IMG/VR virus record: IMGVR_UViG_2541047830_000006
Reading direction: 5' to 3' (one strand)
From: a virus
Lineage: Duplodnaviria > Heunggongvirae > Uroviricota > Caudoviricetes
DNA: 10,126 bases
Every line of letters begins with the position of its first letter. Within the stretch, counting starts at the first letter, position 1. The notes beneath the pieces are model-generated. The model searched no databases and was not told the origin of the DNA. It was given only the letters and a program-made list of their open reading frames with translations. Positions 130 through 8,169 of this stretch are shown in pieces. Both the position numbers and the translations under genes were made by a program.

Positions 130-190
130 ATCGTATTAGCTCTGGTATGAGATTACTCATCTATGGCACAGAGTAAAACCTAATCAGGCT

Positions 191-215
191 GTCCGTTCCG
201 TGCCAGGAGCGGACG
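191..215 (+). repeat. Hairpin-forming repeat, copy A (9-bp arms GTCCGTTCC / GGAGCGGAC, loop GTGCCA)
   Basis: Seen directly: 22 of 25 positions identical to 1114-1138, including an exact 16-nt match GTGCCAGGAGCGGACG. The arms pair 9/9 if one G.U pair is allowed. Confidence 0.6.
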
Positions 216-356
216 TTGTAAAGTTTATTTGGAGAATAATGGTTAGAAGAACTATGTAGATCATAGCCCTCTAAAGTCAGTAGTCTTACACCATATAAAT
301 GGTCATTTAGAGATAGTACACCACCTACAAAAAACGAGATAAAGCGTGCAAGCGGC

Positions 357-542
357 ATGAAGATACATAAAATACTCCATTCTGCACTTGATGTTAGGAT
401 GAATACTGACACTCGCTTTGTAAAGATAAAGATGATCTTGAGGATGATTAGTTTATTAATTATCTCCAATGTTTGTTATTTTGTGATGATAAAGATTCTC
501 TGGATTAATAGGATGGTAATTCAATTAAAAGAGACCTTATAG
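357..542 (+). CDS. Hypothetical small hydrophobic protein (61 aa), doubtful
   Basis: ATG-initiated ORF with a hydrophobic stretch (MISLLIISNVCYFVMIKILWI); its stop TAG 540-542 sits inside the bidirectional terminator hairpin. No convincing Shine-Dalgarno upstream (caagcggcATG), and AT-rich DNA gives spurious ORFs easily. Confidence 0.2.
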   Translation: MKIHKILHSALDVRMNTDTRFVKIKMILRMISLLIISNVCYFVMIKILWINRMVIQLKETL

Positions 543-578: not shown

Positions 579-956
579 TCAATAGAGTATTCTCATCGAA
601 GAAATAACCTCATAAAATGTAAAGACAGCCAGCAAAAAAATACAGATAAAGATAAGGGAAATAGCACACTTAACTAAGGACTGAATCCCCCGAGGTGTTC
701 CCCATGGTTTAGACATTTGGGTTATAACCCAAATAAATAGGGCCATAAAACAGCAAACACCAGCCAATCCGAGCAGAGATATTATGACAACTCCAAACAG
801 ATTTCCAACATCTAGTTTATCTGTTTTTGCAACTAGGGTTAACAAACCAGCAATAATAGTTGCTATCGATATTCCCGCAATGGTTGTGAGATCAGCGATA
901 ACAGCCAGTTTTTCTTTAGTATTTCCTTGAGTAAAAACCTCTAAAATTGATTTCAT
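579..956 (-). CDS. Hypothetical small integral membrane protein (125 aa, about 3 predicted TM helices)
   Basis: ATG start (rc of 954-956) is preceded by AGGTGG (rc of 966-971) at 9-nt spacing. Three long hydrophobic segments (about residues 17-43, 53-78, 91-118). Has its own candidate promoter and terminator; no family recognised. Confidence 0.7.
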   Translation of the reverse strand: MKSILEVFTQGNTKEKLAVIADLTTIAGISIATIIAGLLTLVAKTDKLDVGNLFGVVIISLLGLAGVCCFMALFIWVITQMSKPWGTPRGIQSLVKCAISLIFICIFLLAVFTFYEVISSMRILY

Positions 957-978
957 GGAAAATAACCACCTACTATCG

Positions 979-1008
979 ATTATATTCAGGAACTTTTTAT
1001 CATAACAA
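979..1008 (-). promoter_or_regulatory. Candidate sigma70 promoter for the membrane protein gene (-35 TTGTTA, 18-bp spacer, -10 TATAAT)
   Basis: On the reverse strand TTGTTA is the rc of 1003-1008 and TATAAT the rc of 979-984. The -10 is a perfect consensus; the spacer is at the long end and the leader would be very short. Confidence 0.4.
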
Positions 1009-1398: not shown

Positions 1399-1875
1399 TT
1401 GAAATTTGAACAAATCTATAAAAATATTACTGGCCTTAGCTGTCCCATATTCGGGATTCAGTGGAATGCTCCAATAATAGAAACTGACGAAGCGAAGAAG
1501 ATCGTCATTTTTCTTGAGGACAAGCGCGTTCTTTTCAATCCTGTCGACATGGAGGGTGCTAGTCATTGCACTTCGAGTGTTATCAACATTAGATCTGAAT
1601 TGACTAAAGTCCTACAAGGTTTGCCGAGCGATTCACATTTAGCAAAACAATTAAGGAAAATGAGAAAAGCATGCCAAGAATTCTGTGACAGCGTTGGCTC
1701 CCCTCACTTTATCCAACTTGATCATCCTGTTCAAATATCCATACTTGAGCGAGCCCTTTTTAAACTGCGACAAAAGTGTGGTAACTCTCTGGCAGAAATA
1801 GCGGTTACCTATGGTCTTGATGTTGATGACGGATTGGCCAGTATTATCCCTTTTAATAATCCCAGTAACATATAG
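1399..1875 (+). CDS. Hypothetical protein (158 aa), TTG start, function unknown
   Basis: Strong Shine-Dalgarno AAGGAG (1387-1392) sits 6 nt before TTG 1399. The frame is closed just upstream by TGA 1393-1395, so the start must be this TTG or a later codon. No hydrophobic segments; no family recognised. Confidence 0.5.
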   Translation: MKFEQIYKNITGLSCPIFGIQWNAPIIETDEAKKIVIFLEDKRVLFNPVDMEGASHCTSSVINIRSELTKVLQGLPSDSHLAKQLRKMRKACQEFCDSVGSPHFIQLDHPVQISILERALFKLRQKCGNSLAEIAVTYGLDVDDGLASIIPFNNPSNI

Positions 1876-2038
1876 CAATGACTATGAATTTGCTTGCTGG
1901 ATTAATTATCATGCAACCGACAGTTTTGGGTCGGAAGCGGTTAGCAAATTAGTCATTAGTGAGTCGTTATGTCCGTTCATCGCTCAAAGCAGACTGTCAG
2001 ATTTAATAGCGTTTTGATTATGTAACTTGTCAGTTGGA

Positions 2039-2047
2039 AGCTGAGTG
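2039..2047. repeat. IS10 target site duplication, left copy (AGCTGAGTG)
   Basis: Identical 9-mer at 3377-3385 immediately flanks the other IS10 end. It is close to the known IS10 target preference GCTNAGC (one mismatch). Confidence 0.85.
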
Positions 2048-2087
2048 CTGATGAATCCCCTAATGATTTTGGTAAAAATCATTAAGT

Positions 2088-2128
2088 TAAGGTGGATACA
2101 CATCTTGTCATATGATCAAATGGTTTCG
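2088..2128 (+). promoter_or_regulatory. IS10 pIN region (weak transposase promoter; -10 TATGAT overlapping a Dam GATC site)
   Basis: TATGAT at 2111-2116 overlaps GATC 2114-2117, as expected near IS10 bp 64-70; the -35 is poor, consistent with a weak promoter. Placement is from remembered IS10 biology. Confidence 0.45.
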
Positions 2129-2162
2129 CGAAAAATCAATAATCAGACAACAAGATGTGCGA
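2094..2162 (-). ncRNA. IS10 RNA-OUT antisense RNA from pOUT (approximate coordinates)
   Basis: From remembered IS10 biology RNA-OUT starts near IS10 bp 115 and runs toward the outside end. A TAAAAT -10 (rc of 2170-2175) is correctly placed for a reverse-strand start near 2162. Ends not verified. Confidence 0.4.
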
Positions 2163-3363
2163 ACTCGATATTTTACACGACTCTCTTTACCAATTCTGCC
2201 CCGAATTACACTTAAAACGACTCAACAGCTTAACGTTGGCTTGCCACGCATTACTTGACTGTAAAACTCTCACTCTTACCGAACTTGGCCGTAACCTGCC
2301 AACCAAAGCGAGAACAAAACATAACATCAAACGAATCGACCGATTGTTAGGTAATCGTCACCTCCACAAAGAGCGACTCGCTGTATACCGTTGGCATGCT
2401 AGCTTTATCTGTTCGGGCAATACGATGCCCATTGTACTTGTTGACTGGTCTGATATTCGTGAGCAAAAACGACTTATGGTATTGCGAGCTTCAGTCGCAC
2501 TACACGGTCGTTCTGTTACTCTTTATGAGAAAGCGTTCCCGCTTTCAGAGCAATGTTCAAAGAAAGCTCATGACCAATTTCTAGCCGACCTTGCGAGCAT
2601 TCTACCGAGTAACACCACACCGCTCATTGTCAGTGATGCTGGCTTTAAAGTGCCATGGTATAAATCCGTTGAGAAGCTGGGTTGGTACTGGTTAAGTCGA
2701 GTAAGAGGAAAAGTACAATATGCAGACCTAGGAGCGGAAAACTGGAAACCTATCAGCAACTTACATGATATGTCATCTAGTCACTCAAAGACTTTAGGCT
2801 ATAAGAGGCTGACTAAAAGCAATCCAATCTCATGCCAAATTCTATTGTATAAATCTCGCTCTAAAGGCCGAAAAAATCAGCGCTCGACACGGACTCATTG
2901 TCACCACCCGTCACCTAAAATCTACTCAGCGTCGGCAAAGGAGCCATGGATTCTAGCAACTAACTTACCTGTTGAAATTCGAACACCCAAACAACTTGTT
3001 AATATCTATTCGAAGCGAATGCAGATTGAAGAAACCTTCCGAGACTTGAAAAGTCCTGCCTACGGACTAGGCCTACGCCATAGCCGAACGAGCAGCTCAG
3101 AGCGTTTTGATATCATGCTGCTAATCGCCCTGATGCTTCAACTAACATGTTGGCTTGCGGGCGTTCATGCTCAGAAACAAGGTTGGGACAAGCACTTCCA
3201 GGCTAACACAGTCAGAAATCGAAACGTACTCTCAACAGTTCGCTTAGGCATGGAAGTTTTGCGGCATTCTGGCTACACAATAACAAGGGAAGACTCACTC
3301 GTGGCTGCAACCCTGCTTACTCAAAATCTATTCACACATGGTTACGCTTTGGGGAAATTATGA
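2155..3363 (+). CDS. IS10 transposase (402 aa)
   Basis: Full-length ORF starting MCELDILHDSLYQFCPELHLKRL..., recognised as IS10/Tn10 transposase. ATG lies at element bp 108 as expected and the ORF ends 13 bp before the inside end. Confidence 0.95.
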   Translation: MCELDILHDSLYQFCPELHLKRLNSLTLACHALLDCKTLTLTELGRNLPTKARTKHNIKRIDRLLGNRHLHKERLAVYRWHASFICSGNTMPIVLVDWSDIREQKRLMVLRASVALHGRSVTLYEKAFPLSEQCSKKAHDQFLADLASILPSNTTPLIVSDAGFKVPWYKSVEKLGWYWLSRVRGKVQYADLGAENWKPISNLHDMSSSHSKTLGYKRLTKSNPISCQILLYKSRSKGRKNQRSTRTHCHHPSPKIYSASAKEPWILATNLPVEIRTPKQLVNIYSKRMQIEETFRDLKSPAYGLGLRHSRTSSSERFDIMLLIALMLQLTCWLAGVHAQKQGWDKHFQANTVRNRNVLSTVRLGMEVLRHSGYTITREDSLVAATLLTQNLFTHGYALGKL

Positions 3364-3376
3364 GGGGATCTCTCAG

Positions 3377-3385
3377 AGCTGAGTG
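3377..3385. repeat. IS10 target site duplication, right copy (AGCTGAGTG)
   Basis: Exact 9/9 match to 2039-2047, directly abutting the IS10 inside end. Confidence 0.85.
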
Positions 3386-3400
3386 AGAACAAATCAAGGC

Positions 3401-3432
3401 AGGCGGGCTGATTGCCCGCCTTTTCTTTATTT
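3401..3432 (+). terminator. Rho-independent terminator (8-bp GC-rich stem AGGCGGGC / GCCCGCCT, loop TGATT, then TTTCTTTATTT)
   Basis: Perfect 8-bp stem 3401-3408 / 3414-3421 with a 5-nt loop and a T-rich tract. Before the IS10 insertion it lay about 190 bp downstream of the 158-aa cargo ORF; it now sits between IS10 and the FI promoter region. Confidence 0.8.
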
Positions 3433-3500
3433 GTTGTTTCATCCACTGGCCAGCCAGGTCAAATAGCGTCTCATGCTCTGCACAACAGAAAATAGTTGCA
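3432..3500 (+). promoter_or_regulatory. Putative Ogr-dependent late promoter region for the FI operon
   Basis: Position (between terminator and FI start) is what P2 biology predicts. It contains an 8-bp perfect palindrome CTGGCCAG (3446-3453) and an imperfect TGT-N12-CCA (3435-3452) rather than a clean TGT-N12-ACA site. Transcription start not determinable from sequence. Confidence 0.3.
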
Positions 3501-3524: not shown

Positions 3525-4715
3525 ATGAGTGACTATCATCACGGCGTGCAGGTGCTGGAGATTAACGACGGCACCCGCGTCATTTCCACCGTATCCACGG
3601 CCATTGTCGGCATGGTCTGCACGGCCAGCGATGCGGATGCGGAAACCTTCCCCCTCAATAAACCGGTGCTGATAACCAATGTGCAGAGCGCAATTGCAAA
3701 GGCCGGTAAAAAAGGCACGCTGGCGGCATCGTTGCAGGCCATCGCCGACCAGTCAAAACCGGTCACCGTTGTCGTGCGTGTGGAAGACGGCACCGGCGAC
3801 GACGAAGAAACGAAACTTGCGCAGACCATTTCCAATATCATCGGCACCACCGACGAAAACGGTCAGTACACCGGACTGAAAGCCCTGCTGGCGGCGGAGT
3901 CGGTAACCGGTGTTAAACCGCGTATTCTTGGTGTGCCGGGACTGGACACCAAAGAGGTTGCCGTCGCACTGGCATCAGTCTGTCAGAAGCTGCGCGCTTT
4001 CGGGTATATCAGCGCATGGGGCTGTAAGACCATTTCCGAGGTGAAAGCCTACCGCCAGAATTTCAGCCAGCGTGAGCTGATGGTCATCTGGCCGGATTTC
4101 CTCGCATGGGATACGGTCGCCAGTACCACCGCCACCGCGTATGCCACCGCTCGTGCACTGGGCCTGCGTGCTAAAATCGACCAGGAGCAGGGCTGGCATA
4201 AAACGCTGTCCAACGTCGGGGTAAGCGGTGTTACCGGCATCAGCGCCTCTGTATTCTGGGATTTGCAGGAGTCCGGTACCGATGCTGACCTGCTTAACGA
4301 GTCAGGCGTCACAACGCTGATTCGCCGTGACGGTTTCCGCTTCTGGGGTAACCGTACCTGCTCTGATGACCCGCTGTTCCTCTTTGAAAACTACACCCGC
4401 ACCGCGCAGGTGCTTGCCGACACGATGGCTGAGGCGCACATGTGGGCGGTGGACAAGCCCATCACCGCAACGCTGATTCGCGACATCGTTGACGGCATCA
4501 ATGCCAAATTCCGTGAGCTGAAAACAAACGGCTATATCGTGGATGCGACCTGCTGGTTCAGCGAAGAATCCAACGATGCGGAAACCCTCAAGGCCGGAAA
4601 ACTGTATATCGACTACGACTATACACCGGTGCCTCCTCTTGAAAACCTGACCCTGCGCCAGCGTATTACCGATAAATACCTGGCAAATCTGGTCACCTCG
4701 GTTAACAGCAATTAA
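3525..4715 (+). CDS. FI: Phage tail sheath protein (P2 gpFI-like, 396 aa)
   Basis: Full ORF with GGAG Shine-Dalgarno 8 nt upstream. Sequence MSDYHHGVQVLEINDGTRVIS... is recognised as P2-family FI and the length matches the 396 aa I remember for P2. Confidence 0.95.
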   Translation: MSDYHHGVQVLEINDGTRVISTVSTAIVGMVCTASDADAETFPLNKPVLITNVQSAIAKAGKKGTLAASLQAIADQSKPVTVVVRVEDGTGDDEETKLAQTISNIIGTTDENGQYTGLKALLAAESVTGVKPRILGVPGLDTKEVAVALASVCQKLRAFGYISAWGCKTISEVKAYRQNFSQRELMVIWPDFLAWDTVASTTATAYATARALGLRAKIDQEQGWHKTLSNVGVSGVTGISASVFWDLQESGTDADLLNESGVTTLIRRDGFRFWGNRTCSDDPLFLFENYTRTAQVLADTMAEAHMWAVDKPITATLIRDIVDGINAKFRELKTNGYIVDATCWFSEESNDAETLKAGKLYIDYDYTPVPPLENLTLRQRITDKYLANLVTSVNSN

Positions 4716-5578: not shown

Positions 5579-5730
5579 CGTTTCCGAAAAATCTCTCGGT
5601 CGATGACCTGATGGCGGATGTGGCAGTGATATTTCACTGGCCGCCATCAGAACTGTATCCCATGAGCCTGACCGAACTCATCACATGGCGCGAAAAGGCG
5701 CTCCGGCGAAGCGGAAACACGAATGAGTAA
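5303..5730 (+). CDS. E': Tail assembly chaperone E+E' produced by a programmed -1 frameshift at TTTTTTG (5551-5557); predicted 142 aa
   Basis: After a -1 slip the reading frame stays open from 5557 to TAA 5728-5730, giving 85 + 57 = 142 residues ending ...WREKALRRSGNTNE. This matches the known P2 E/E' arrangement (analogous to lambda G/GT). The E' end overlaps the T start. Confidence 0.8.
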
Positions 5731-8169
5731 CAATGTAAAATTACAGGTATTGCTCAGGGCTGTTGACCAGGCATCCCGCCCGTTTAAATCCATCCGTACA
5801 GCGAGCAAGTCGCTGTCGGGGGATATCCGGGAAACACAAAAATCACTGCGCGAGCTGAACGGTCACGCATCCCGTATTGAGGGATTCCGCAAGACCAGTG
5901 CACAGCTCGCCGTGACTGGTCATGCATTTGAAAAGGCTCGACAGGAAGCCGAAGCCCTTGCCACACAGTTTAAAAACACCGAACGTCCGACCCGTGCTCA
6001 GGCGAAAGTGCTGGAATCCGCAAAGCGTGCGGCGGAGGACTTACAGGCGAAATATAACCGCCTGACAGATTCCGTTAAACGCCAGCAGCGAGAACTGGCC
6101 GCTGTGGGAATTAATACCCGCAATCTTGCACATGATGAGCAGGGACTGAAAAACCGTATCAGTGAAACCACCGCACAGCTTAACCGTCAGCGTGACGCGC
6201 TGGCGCGTGTCAGTGTACAACAGGCAAAACTTAACGCAGTCAAACAGCGTTATCAGGCAGGAAAGGAACTGGCCGGAAATATGGCCTCAGTGGGCGCTGC
6301 CGGTGCGGGGATTGCTGCTGCGGGAACGATGGCCGGAGTTAAGCTGCTGATGCCCGGTTATGAGTTTGCGCAGAAAAACTCAGAATTGCAGGCCGTGCTC
6401 GGAGTGGCAAAAGACTCCGCCGAAATGACCGCACTCCGCAAACAGGCGCGCCAGCTCGGTGACAACACAGCCGCCTCGGCGGATGATGCGGCCGGTGCGC
6501 AGATTATCATTGCGAAAGCGGGTGGAGATGCTGCGGCTATTCAGGCGGCAACGCCGGTCACGCTGAATATGGCACTGGCGAATCAGCGGTCGATGGAAGA
6601 AAACGCGCAACTGTTGCTGGGGACTAAGGCATCCTTTCAACTGTCAAATGATGATGTCAGCCATGTGGGCGACGTGTTGTCTGCAACGATGAATAAGTCG
6701 GCGCTGATTTTCAGGGACTCAGTGATGCACTGACTTACCTCGGGCCGGTTGCGAGGACGGCAGGCGTAAGTCTTGAGCAGGCAGCGGCCATGACAGGTGT
6801 GCTGCATGACAATAACATCAGGGGGTCAATGGCGGGTACGGGTAGTAGTGCCGTTGTCACCCGATTACAGGCACCGACTGGAAAAGCATGGGATGCACTC
6901 AAAGAGCTTGGCGTTAAAACCTCGGACAAAAAGGGAAATATGCGTCCGTTGTTCACCATTCTGAAAGAGATTCAGGCCAGCTTTGATAAACACAAGCTGG
7001 GAACGTCTCAGAAGGGGGAATACCTTAAAACCATTTTTGGTGAGGAAGCCCTGAAATCAGCGAACGTTTTACTGGCAGCGGCAGCAAGCGGAAAACTGGA
7101 TAAGCTGACCGCCACGCTGAAAGCCTCGGACGGTAAAACGGAAGAGCTGGTTAAAATCATGCAGGATAACCTCGGCGGTGACTTTAAGGAGTTTCAGTCC
7201 GCTTATGAGGCGGTGGGGACTGACCTGTTTGACCAGCAGGAAGGCGCACTGCGTAATCTCACGCAGACGGCCACAAAGTATGTGTTAAAACTCGACGGCT
7301 GGATCCAGAAAAACAAATCACTGGCGTCAACCATCGGCATCATTGTCGGTGGTGCACTGGCACTGATTGGTGTCATCGGTGCCATTGGCCTCGTAGCCTG
7401 GCCGGTTATCACCGGCATCAATGCCATCATCGCGGCAGCAGGCGCAATGGGGGCAATCTTCACGACGGTTGGCAGTGCTGTTATGACCGCCATCGGGGCG
7501 ATTAGCTGGCCGGTTGTGGCCGTGGTGGCCGCCATTGTCGCCGGGGCGTTGCTTATCCGTAAATACTGGGAGCCTGTCAGCGCATTCTTTGGCGGTGTGG
7601 TGGAAGGGCTGAAAGCGGCATTTACGCCGGTGGGGGAACTGTTCACGCCACTTAAACCGGTGTTTGACTGGCTGGGTGAAAAGTTACAGGCCGCGTGGCA
7701 GTGGTTTAAAAACCTGATTGCCCCGGTCAAAGCCACCCAGGACACCCTGAACCGTTGCCGTGACACGGGCGTCATGTTCGGGCAGGCACTGGCTGACGCG
7801 CTGATGCTGCCGCTTAATGCGTTCAACAAACTGCGCAGTGGTATTGACTGGGTACTGGAAAAACTCGGTGTTATCAACAAAGAGTCAGACACACTTGACC
7901 AGACCGCCGCCAGAACTCAAGCCGCCACGTATGGCAGCGGTGGTTATATTCCGGCGACCAGCTCTTATGCAGGTTATCAGGCTTATCAGCCGGTCACGGC
8001 ACCGGCTGGCCGCTCTTATGTAGACCAGAGTAAAAACGAATATCACATCAGCCTGACGGGTGGTACTGCGCCGGGGACACAGCTCGACCGCCAGTTACAG
8101 GATGCGCTCGAAAAATACGAGCGGGATAAACGAGCGCGCGCCCGTGCCAGCATGATGCATGACGGTTAA
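5723..8169 (+). pseudogene. T: Tail tape measure protein gene T, interrupted by a -1 frame change (real frameshift or single-base sequencing error)
   Basis: N-terminal ORF 5723..6733 and C-terminal ORF 6790..8169 (its frame opens at 6697) together span 2447 nt, one short of a multiple of three. Both frames are open only across 6697-6733, which contains the T4 run 6708-6711. The translations read as one continuous P2-T-like protein across the junction (...SATMNKSAL / DFQGLSDALTYLGPVA...). Confidence 0.75.

Follow-up and report, generated by a model that had tools for sequence, protein, structure and literature searches.

A simple, apparently recent IS10 insertion beside the DUF6650 cargo gene of a cryptic P2-like prophage

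The window analyzed here, i.e., the whole stretch of 10,126 nucleotides, carries an insertion sequence between a 158-aa cargo gene and a transcription terminator. This arrangement raises the question of whether the insertion silences or rewires the neighboring cargo, as an initial annotation of the sequence had proposed, or whether it is an ordinary transposition event with little consequence. Our analysis argues for the latter. The element is very probably the product of a simple, very recent cut-and-paste hop, in which an IS10 of the active type entered non-coding spacer DNA in a cryptic P2-like prophage, with a net effect that is likely neutral or nearly so.

Identity of the IS10 element

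The element spans positions 2048-3376 on the plus strand (1329 bp) and is a complete IS10 of the IS10-Right type, with its outside end on the left and its inside end on the right; in RefSeq, such copies are labeled 'ISVsa5 family'. It starts with CTGATGAATCCCC and ends with GGGGATCTCTCAG. The terminal inverted repeats at the outside end (2048-2070, plus strand) and the inside end (3354-3376, minus strand) both begin with CTGA and agree at 17 of their first 23 positions, which is the native, imperfect IS10 pattern, and both ends are the same as in other full-length IS10 copies. The inside-end repeat contains a GATC Dam site (3367-3370), the functional role of which is established IS10 biology, and another GATC Dam site lies in the pIN -10 region (2114-2117). 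The transposase gene (2155-3363, plus strand) is an uninterrupted ORF of 402 aa, the product of which matches Pfam DDE_Tnp_1 (1.5e-24) and the NCBIfam IS4-family equivalog (402 bits, cut-off 152). Residues D97, D161 and E292, as well as Y285, R288 and K299, are all retained, with the Y-R-E-K signature present. The intact terminal repeats and full-length transposase described in the initial annotation are thus borne out by the comparison of the ends, the reading frame and the family matches.

For a reference copy, IS10 from the XL1-Blue F' was dropped when it proved to be of the IS10-Left type, and IS10-Right of Tn10 on R100 (NC_002134.1), which is the copy on the tetD side, was used instead. 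The window copy is identical to the latter at 1322 of 1329 nt (99.5%) and at 399 of 402 aa, with three of the seven nucleotide substitutions changing amino acids (I266V, S381L, T389A). IS nucleotides 1-202, i.e., the regulatory region comprising pIN, pOUT and RNA-OUT, exhibited no difference from IS10-Right. There were 10 nucleotide differences from IS10-Left of Tn10 and 14 from the XL1-Blue F' copy. At six of the seven positions that differ from IS10-Right, the window copy has the IS10-Left base, and it looks like a mosaic of both Tn10 copies. A copy in E. coli D10 is 100% identical to it, and two other genome copies that were compared closely differ from it by 1 nt.

A census of the family among 5426 complete E. 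coli genomes identified 6798 places in 1968 of them, reaching 45 in a single genome; identity was at least 99% for nearly all of these places. The abundance of near-identical copies across genomes indicates that the IS10 family is active, and the present copy is probably still mobile. Taken together, its length, ends, 9-bp target-site duplication (TSD), DDE transposase, RNA-OUT and near-identity to IS10-Right assign the element to IS10 of the IS4 family. The composite transposon Tn10 itself was ruled out, as the window contains a single IS10 and no tet genes, and the flanks are contiguous prophage DNA.

Insertion site, empty site and age

The element is bordered by two perfect copies of the 9-bp sequence AGCTGAGTG, at 2039-2047 on the left and at 3377-3385 on the right, exactly where the initial annotation had placed them; two given positions would share all nine letters by chance with a probability of ~4e-6. 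This sequence fits the IS10 target consensus, NGCTNAGCN, at five of the six specified positions. In 8.8 kb, GCTNAGC was matched with no more than one mismatch at 49 sites, the target among them (~42 expected), none of them perfect, and on this basis the target appears unremarkable, i.e., an ordinary site among many acceptable ones. It lies 172 nt past the DUF6650 gene and 24 nt before the terminator.

When the IS and one copy of the repeat were removed, the sequence matched the E. coli SaT040 version of this prophage at 100% identity over 8647 nt. The empty site was found as predicted, GGAAGCTGAGTGAGAACAAATC: with a joined-flank query of 1209 nt, 17 complete E. coli genomes matched at 100% identity and a further one at 99.9%. 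SaT040 and CD306 are both empty-site relatives. A query spanning the occupied junction, in turn, was not covered to at least 80% by any record from the 5426 complete E. coli genomes. Similarly, the 37-nt junction was not found in GTDB species representatives, JGI metagenomes or IMG/VR. Because the empty site is present in relatives and the occupied junction is absent from the collections, these comparisons indicate that the insertion is real, simple and very recent. The simple, recent event and the joined sequence anticipated by the initial annotation were therefore both recovered. No IS10 was found near the DUF6650 gene in the five distinct neighborhoods (25 contigs) returned by a look-up of DUF6650-bearing contigs; this look-up covered 24 of 838 index blocks, so there could be further strains in which this insertion is present.

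Given that cloned DNA in laboratory E. coli is a known target of IS10 (PMC4574204), and that the insertion is in no other record of the collections searched, we considered whether it might be an artefact, i.e., an insertion acquired during cloning in a host that carries IS10, or a mis-assembled repeat. We judge this to be highly improbable. Real transposition, and not mis-assembly, leaves a perfect 9-bp TSD at a target close to the consensus. Moreover, the copy differs from both Tn10 copies and from that of the XL1-Blue F', and is identical to, or 1 nt from, copies in natural isolates. An old or complex event, whether an insertion inherited from long ago, a rearrangement mediated by an IS or one piece of a composite transposon, is harder still to entertain. 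Rearrangements of this kind do occur in the IS family, as the identical copy in D10 is without a TSD. In the window, however, a single IS has a matching TSD on both sides, and there is no second IS10 (one RNA-OUT, one transposase ORF). The flanks are, furthermore, collinear with and 100% identical to those of the empty-site prophage, and on that ground such an origin is refuted.

In the simple hop that we favor, transposase would have cleaved a near-consensus target with a 9-bp stagger (AGCTGAGTG as against NGCTNAGCN), and repair would then have doubled AGCTGAGTG. The hop would have been an unselected one, into one of many usable sites in an already decaying prophage. The cryptic, defective P2-like prophage belongs to an E. 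coli strain in which it is identical to the SaT040 prophage. In the window, the tape-measure gene has a frameshift, and the annotation of the identical SaT040 prophage marks both the tape measure and the tail fiber as frameshifted. In other strains, the same prophage has IS21-family genes in its tail-fiber region. The prophage is both defective and gathering IS elements.

Cargo genes, backbone and terminator

The cargo locus lies between the tail-fiber-assembly gene (G) upstream and the tail-sheath gene FI (3525-4715, plus strand) downstream, which is the position of P2 Z/fun. Variable cargo is found here within a conserved backbone, consistent with a cargo hotspot of the P2 Z/fun type. Z/fun has been named as a defense locus, and transposable elements are reported to be almost absent from P2/P4 defense hotspots (PMC13586616); given this scarcity, an IS at the edge of a hotspot is at least uncommon.

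The cassette (133-2000) holds just two genes. The first (579-956, minus strand) encodes a small membrane protein of 125 aa, with three hydrophobic segments by hydropathy and membership of phrog_4155. The second (1399-1875, plus strand) has a TTG start and ends 172 nt to the left of the IS10 outside end; its 158-aa product matches Pfam PF20355 (60.7 bits, cut-off 27), phrog_29952 and the RefSeq protein WP_001576672.1, a 'DUF6650 family protein'. No cargo ORF matched a known defense system in PADLOC or NCBIfam, the PHROGs matches of the cargo were to families of unknown function only, and no TIR domain was detected in any cargo ORF using Pfam and PADLOC. In other genera, the gene downstream of DUF6650 homologues differs from locus to locus (15-28% identity), with one being a PADLOC PDC-S31 candidate, and a 125-aa ORF upstream of the homologue in Comamonas is unrelated to the 125-aa protein of the window. 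The idea that the cassette has lost a conserved partner gene was rejected, as the neighbors of the homologues are mutually unrelated. A DUF6650 (ThsG-family) cargo gene that is TIR-less is, in our view, more interesting than the IS10 insertion.

Between the cargo genes lies a conserved boundary element of ~70 nt with two hairpins (GTCCGC-N12-GCGGAC), and the same two-hairpin element flanks single cargo genes in other E. coli mobile elements. In two of three non-P2 loci that were inspected, small genes for a 'site-specific integrase' occur close to it. A compensatory change was observed at only one of the 17 predicted pairs of its RNA structure. When we asked whether the element is tRNA-like, no tRNA genes were found, and its sequence was not found in the searchable literature. 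The element could bear on how defense cassettes get swapped at phage hotspots. These surroundings, i.e., the DUF6650 cargo and the boundary element, merit more attention than IS10.

The conserved P2-type backbone begins at ~1968, and both the insertion site and the terminator lie within it and are shared by prophages with quite different cargo. Its right flank starts with a degenerate copy of the boundary element (1969-2047, plus strand), with the IS10 target at the 3' end of this copy. The intrinsic terminator (3386-3438, plus strand) consists of a GC stem-loop (3401-3421) followed by a T-run to ~3432. It was identified by a consensus scan (8-bp stem, seven GC pairs, T-run) as well as by folding (-26.6 kcal/mol, z = -4.5), and its A-rich upstream arm is able to pair with the U-run. 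In the joined sequence, the stop of the 158-aa ORF (1875) is 187 nt ahead of the terminator stem (3401, or 2063 in empty-site coordinates), in keeping with the spacing of about 190 bp given in the initial annotation. That annotation had also taken the terminator to be the cargo's own, but it belongs to the conserved backbone and is found with other cargo. The further suggestion that the terminator insulates FI holds in so far as it is retained between the inside end and FI, but carries little weight because the prophage is already defective. No exact match to the Ogr-type late-promoter dyad TGT-N12-ACA was found upstream of FI in the window, and a one-mismatch match at 3435-3452 was no better than chance; the position of the FI promoter is, therefore, one that we infer.

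Predicted transcription across the insertion

The outside end, and hence pOUT and RNA-OUT, points toward the 158-aa gene, as the initial annotation had stated. The RNA-OUT antisense RNA gene (2162->2093, minus strand; 5' end at 2162, 3' end at ~2094) was identified as Rfam RF00240 over its full length of 1-70 (98.8 bits, gathering score 41), and its stem-loop was also seen. The pOUT promoter would lie just upstream, at ~2163-2200 on the minus strand. A fold-back inverted repeat (arms 2099-2116 and 2142-2159, plus strand) is predicted to form also in plus-strand read-through RNA, where it covers the transposase ATG at 2155. Fold-back pairing of this kind blunts the activation of transposase by read-through from outside the element. 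The presence of this repeat over the transposase start codon did not feature in the earlier annotation.

No intrinsic terminator was predicted between 1875 and 2093 on either strand by consensus scan and folding, and plus-strand folding of this interval was on par with that of shuffled sequences (z = -0.35). Both a terminator of the cargo's own and a minus-strand block to pOUT read-out were accordingly rejected for this interval. Plus-strand DUF6650 transcripts would now enter IS10 via its outside end, and the fold-back repeat should stop these entering transcripts from raising transposase synthesis. Transcripts from the inside end would be halted ahead of FI by the intact terminator. On the minus strand, pOUT would yield mainly the 69-nt RNA-OUT ending at ~2094, with a small read-out fraction antisense to DUF6650. 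RNA-OUT has been described as a discrete 69-nt species with its end at IS10 nt 47, which corresponds to position 2094 of the window (PMC5006887). According to a review, read-out from pOUT into the flanks is minor, at ~10% of PlacUV5 (PMC9330008, citing Simons 1983). Some antisense transcription over DUF6650 is nonetheless plausible, because pOUT read-out has been documented to activate neighboring genes (PMC9330008; PMC4574204). Any minus-strand read-out of ~1.1 kb would, in addition, run in the sense direction through the gene of the 125-aa membrane protein (956->579), a point that the initial annotation did not raise; a promoter-like site for this gene occurs at 1008..979 on the same strand as pOUT read-out.

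We weighed whether the insertion has been kept for its effect on cargo expression, be it through antisense silencing of DUF6650, through driving of the 125-aa gene, or through destabilization or extension of the DUF6650 mRNA. The geometry for such silencing or rewiring by IS10 is correct, and the effect itself is purely something that we infer from it: RNA-OUT and pOUT are aimed at the cargo, with no minus-strand terminator predicted between the outside end and the DUF6650 gene. Outward promoters have been described at both IS10 ends (PMC4574204), adding to the documented cases of read-out into neighbors (PMC9330008), and in Bordetella pertussis an IS-driven antisense RNA is reported to attenuate a neighboring gene (PMC11774165). 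DUF6650 also belongs to a family of toxic effectors (type VI Thoeris ThsG), such that silencing could relieve a cost. Against this, most of the pOUT product stops at IS10 nt 47, and the insertion lies outside the DUF6650 gene and its promoter, leaving the ORF intact. The near-consensus target is ordinary, the sampled DUF6650 neighborhoods are without IS10, and there is no sign of selection, because none of the collections searched yielded the occupied junction. We thus consider adaptive rewiring to be unlikely. That the insertion functions to tune down a potentially toxic orphan DUF6650 effector, or to switch on its co-oriented 125-aa partner, via read-out from pOUT together with loss of the proximal terminator, seems somewhat more doubtful again; if true, it would represent a rare remodeling of a P2 defense hotspot by a transposable element, given the near-absence of such elements reported there (PMC13586616). 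For the fresh, unselected hop, the most likely outcome is a net effect that is neutral or nearly so, as suggested by its non-recurrence and ordinary target.

The main use of a fresh IS10 hop is to mark a strain, and it also recalls that insertion sequences accumulate in cryptic prophages. Were expression of the DUF6650 gene to be altered, isogenic empty-site strains such as SaT040 would provide a natural on/off comparison for an uncharacterized, TIR-less member of the ThsG family.

Comparison with known systems

With regard to the cargo, the 158-aa protein resembles type VI Thoeris, which comprises a TIR protein and a ThsG/DUF6650 effector, in that it falls within Pfam DUF6650, to which the ThsG effector also belongs. 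The cassette differs, however, in having no adjacent gene for a TIR signal synthase, and we do not assign it to that system. At the same position in the P2 Z/fun locus, other prophages carry retron Eco8 or a 251-aa gene, whereas the cargo here consists of the 125-aa membrane protein and the 158-aa DUF6650 protein, neither of which is a validated defense system.

IS10 was also the element that activated acrEF in Salmonella and cat in pSU vectors, through the outward promoter, pOUT, that lies near its outside end. There, the IS was upstream, transcription was in the sense orientation and the insertions were recovered under selection, whereas here the IS is downstream, only antisense RNA to DUF6650 is possible and selection is not evident. 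The Bordetella pertussis case shares the mechanism that the initial annotation had proposed, i.e., an outward IS promoter giving rise to antisense RNA on a neighboring gene, but concerns another IS in another organism. Both the antisense RNA and a phenotype are reported as findings there (PMC11774165), whereas any antisense RNA in the present case is a prediction. Finally, IS10-Right of Tn10 on R100 has the same 1329 bp, outside and inside ends, 9-bp TSD and 402-aa DDE transposase as the window copy, which differs from it by the seven substitutions and is closer to the genome copies of natural isolates. The IS10 insertion is, in this light, an ordinary and already known kind of event.

Structure and recency of the IS10 insertion

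The IS10 element occupies positions 2048-3376 of the window (1329 bp, starting with CTGATGAATCCCCTAATG and ending with GGGGATCTCTCAG). It is flanked at 2039-2047 and 3377-3385 by identical 9-mers, AGCTGAGTG, confirming the perfect 9-bp target-site duplication (TSD) described in the initial annotation. As also described there, its sole long ORF (2155-3363) encodes an uninterrupted transposase of 402 aa; this matched DDE_Tnp_1 in Pfam (1.5e-24) and the IS4-family equivalog in NCBIfam (402 bits; cut-off 152), and retains the catalytic residues D97, D161 and E292 together with the Y285/R288/K299 signature. The antisense RNA of IS10, RNA-OUT, was detected at full length on the minus strand using Rfam (2162..2093; 98.8 bits, gathering score 41), with its stem formed by an inverted repeat at 2099-2116 / 2142-2159. 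This orientation places the outside end of IS10 on the left and directs the outward promoter, pOUT, towards lower coordinates, i.e., towards the cargo genes, as had been proposed.

After removal of IS10 and one 9-mer, the window and the P2-like prophage of E. coli SaT040 agreed at every one of the 8647 bases that could be compared (100% identity). Seventeen complete genomes matched a joined-flank query (1209 nt) at 100% identity, and one further genome matched it at 99.9%. In all of these related genomes, which lack IS10 at this position, the empty site reads GGAAGCTGAGTGAGAACAAATC, exactly as predicted. These empty-site genomes, together with the IS-free identity to SaT040, rule out an old or complex event. 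No record among 5426 complete genomes covered at least 80% of a query spanning the occupied junction, and the 37-nt junction was not found in the species-representative genome collection, JGI metagenomes or IMG/VR. IS10 was likewise missing from all five distinct DUF6650-gene neighbourhoods (25 contigs read; 24 of 838 index blocks covered). With a single IS, matching TSD copies and collinear flanks, the insertion is real, simple and recent, in line with the initial annotation, and, as far as these collections show, private to the source strain.

To type the element, both Tn10 copies on plasmid R100 (NC_002134.1; L020) were used as the reference. Seven of the 1329 positions differed between the window IS10 and the tetD-side copy, whose outside-end sequence identifies it as IS10-Right; the gltS-side copy, IS10-Left, showed 10 differences. 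It is identical to IS10-Right across the first 202 nt, which contain the outside end, the pIN-region Dam site, the RNA-IN start, pOUT and RNA-OUT. Because six 3' positions carry the IS10-Left base, the element looks like a mosaic of both Tn10 copies. It agreed with IS10-Right at nt 24-425 and nt 1300 and with IS10-Left at nt 903-1281, and its base at nt 203 was found in neither copy. That IS10 hopped in a cloning host, making the insertion an artefact, is unlikely, given that this copy is not of the Tn10 type seen in laboratory strains and that the TSD is a true signature of transposition.

Copies of this IS are named 'ISVsa5 family' in RefSeq. Of 5426 complete E. coli genomes, 1968 carried IS10-type copies, which occupied 6798 places in total (maximum of 45 per genome) and were nearly all at least 99% identical. 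Given this abundance of near-identical copies, it is fair to regard the element as probably still mobile. The sole 100% identical copy found was in E. coli D10, and two further genome copies compared in detail were one base off, at nt 1300 (A398V). In D10 (L005; NZ_CP010157.1, 895483-896811), the flanking 9-mers, TGCTTGACC and TGCTCAGCA, are unlike each other; a TSD is therefore absent there, suggesting a rearrangement mediated by the IS in this strain.

The insertion site and its prophage

The window covers the tail region of a P2-like prophage in the order tail-fibre-assembly gene (3' end, to 129), cargo interval, tail sheath (FI; 3525-4715), followed by tube, assembly chaperones, tape measure and further tail genes. 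The cargo interval is the P2 Z/fun accessory locus, which has been named among defence loci (PMC13586616). Two loci with the same backbone and interval carry other cargo, i.e., a 251-aa gene in L018 and retron Eco8 in L019. Homology to prophages with other cargo starts at about position 1968, and the stretch common to L018 takes in the target 9-mer and the terminator; since, in addition, the cargo segment recurs elsewhere, IS10 lies in the conserved right flank of the backbone. It lies 172 nt past the DUF6650 stop codon and 24 nt ahead of the terminator stem, interrupting no gene. The target agrees with the consensus GCTNAGC at 5 of 6 positions, and 49 such sites occur in the 8.8-kb IS-free sequence (approximately 42 expected; no perfect sites), consistent with an acceptable rather than a special target.

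The prophage is cryptic and already defective: in comparison with the intact L018 gene, a 1-nt frameshift divides its tape-measure gene in two (~6700-6790; ORFs 5723-6733 and 6790-8169), and the annotation of the identical SaT040 prophage marks tape measure and tail fibre alike as frameshifted. In other strains carrying the same prophage (L007 and L008, 1-2129), the tail-fibre / assembly region holds IS21-family genes (rve transposase and IstB), and this prophage therefore repeatedly collects insertion sequences.

Cargo genes and a two-hairpin boundary element

The DUF6650 gene (1399-1875, plus strand) encodes a 158-aa member of Pfam DUF6650, the ThsG effector family of type VI Thoeris. As no TIR gene is present in the window, assignment of the cargo to type VI Thoeris was rejected. 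A different protein, of 299 aa, that forms a validated single-gene system contains the DUF6650 domain as well (PMC13092281). Homologues of the 158-aa protein (46-95% identical) extend across Gamma- and Betaproteobacteria, mostly amid defence-type or mobile genes; because their neighbours are mutually unrelated, the protein may function by itself, or it may be an orphan effector or binder. The second cargo gene (579-956, minus strand) is transcribed divergently, has a good sigma-70-like site at 1008..979, and encodes a 125-aa membrane protein with three hydrophobic segments (phrog_4155, function unassigned). Segment 133-2000 recurs with 98.4% identity at 2735-4602 of L009 (E. coli CP043258.1) in a quite different neighbourhood, beside an M78-peptidase gene, a 251-aa gene and a GIY-YIG gene, indicating that the two-gene segment moves between loci as a unit. 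Two mechanical ORFs, at 161-469 (minus strand, 102 aa; no family match in Pfam, PHROGs, PADLOC or NCBIfam) and 1811-2017 (plus strand, 68 aa; none in Pfam, PHROGs or PADLOC), are without RefSeq annotation and are probably not genes.

Between the cargo genes lies a repeated element of ~70 nt. Its two hairpins are 24-nt palindromes of the form GTCCGC-N12-GCGGAC that differ in their loops (TCGCTCACA type versus GTGCCAGG type). The full copy is at 1068-1140; the second hairpin alone is found 3' of the tail-fibre-assembly gene (191-214), and a degenerate copy (1969-2047) starts the backbone flank and ends at the IS10 target. Among the comparison loci, copies were located in L009 (2793-2816, 3674-3739, 4573-4638, 5808-5858), L018 (2317-2340, 3503-3526), L021 (2331-2354, 3505-3570), L022 (2486-2509, 3500-3565) and L023 (2481-2504, 3504-3569, 5638-5661). 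Among 5426 E. coli genomes, 874 contain the element, which lacks annotation in 30 of 30 records listed. Single cargo genes are again flanked by it at three loci that do not belong to P2 prophages. Its copies displayed no covariation or compensatory change favouring an RNA role, and no published description of the sequence was found in the searchable literature. How recombination proceeds at P2/P4 hotspots has yet to be clarified, according to PMC13586616. The element may serve as a homology patch or as a recombination site through which cassettes are swapped, and merits a study of its own.

Transcription around IS10 and the meaning of the insertion

The initial annotation raised the possibility that the insertion silences or rewires the cargo, and the geometry for such a functional argument is right. 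On the plus strand, DUF6650 transcripts would now enter IS10 via its outside end. The inverted repeat of the RNA-OUT stem spans the transposase ATG at 2155 and, as is established for IS10, would also fold in such read-through RNA and block the transposase start. On the opposite strand, any read-out from pOUT would yield RNA antisense to DUF6650 and, if extended over ~1.1 kb, in the sense orientation for the 125-aa membrane-protein gene (956->579); consensus scanning and folding revealed no terminator-like sites between 1875 and 2093 on either strand. RNA-OUT itself is a 69-nt species with its 3' end at IS10 nt 47, i.e., window position 2094 (PMC5006887), and read-out to adjacent DNA is documented yet minor, at ~10% of PlacUV5, in a review passage citing Simons 1983 (PMC9330008).

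Towards FI, the strong backbone terminator was indeed retained intact (8-bp stem with 7 GC pairs, T-run; -26.6 kcal/mol, z = -4.5), and would halt inside-end transcripts before FI. Shielding of the FI late promoter carries little meaning, however, because the prophage is already defective and collects IS elements in other strains. Within 3386-3438, an upstream A-rich arm is able to pair with the downstream U-run, and the region scored as terminator-like on the minus strand too; the terminator may therefore act in both directions.

Silencing or rewiring of the cargo is a hypothetical outcome for which no supporting signal was seen, given the absence of recurrence, the ordinary target, the intact cargo gene and promoter, and the termination of RNA-OUT mostly within IS10. 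By far the preferred and most likely explanation is a neutral or near-neutral recent hop.
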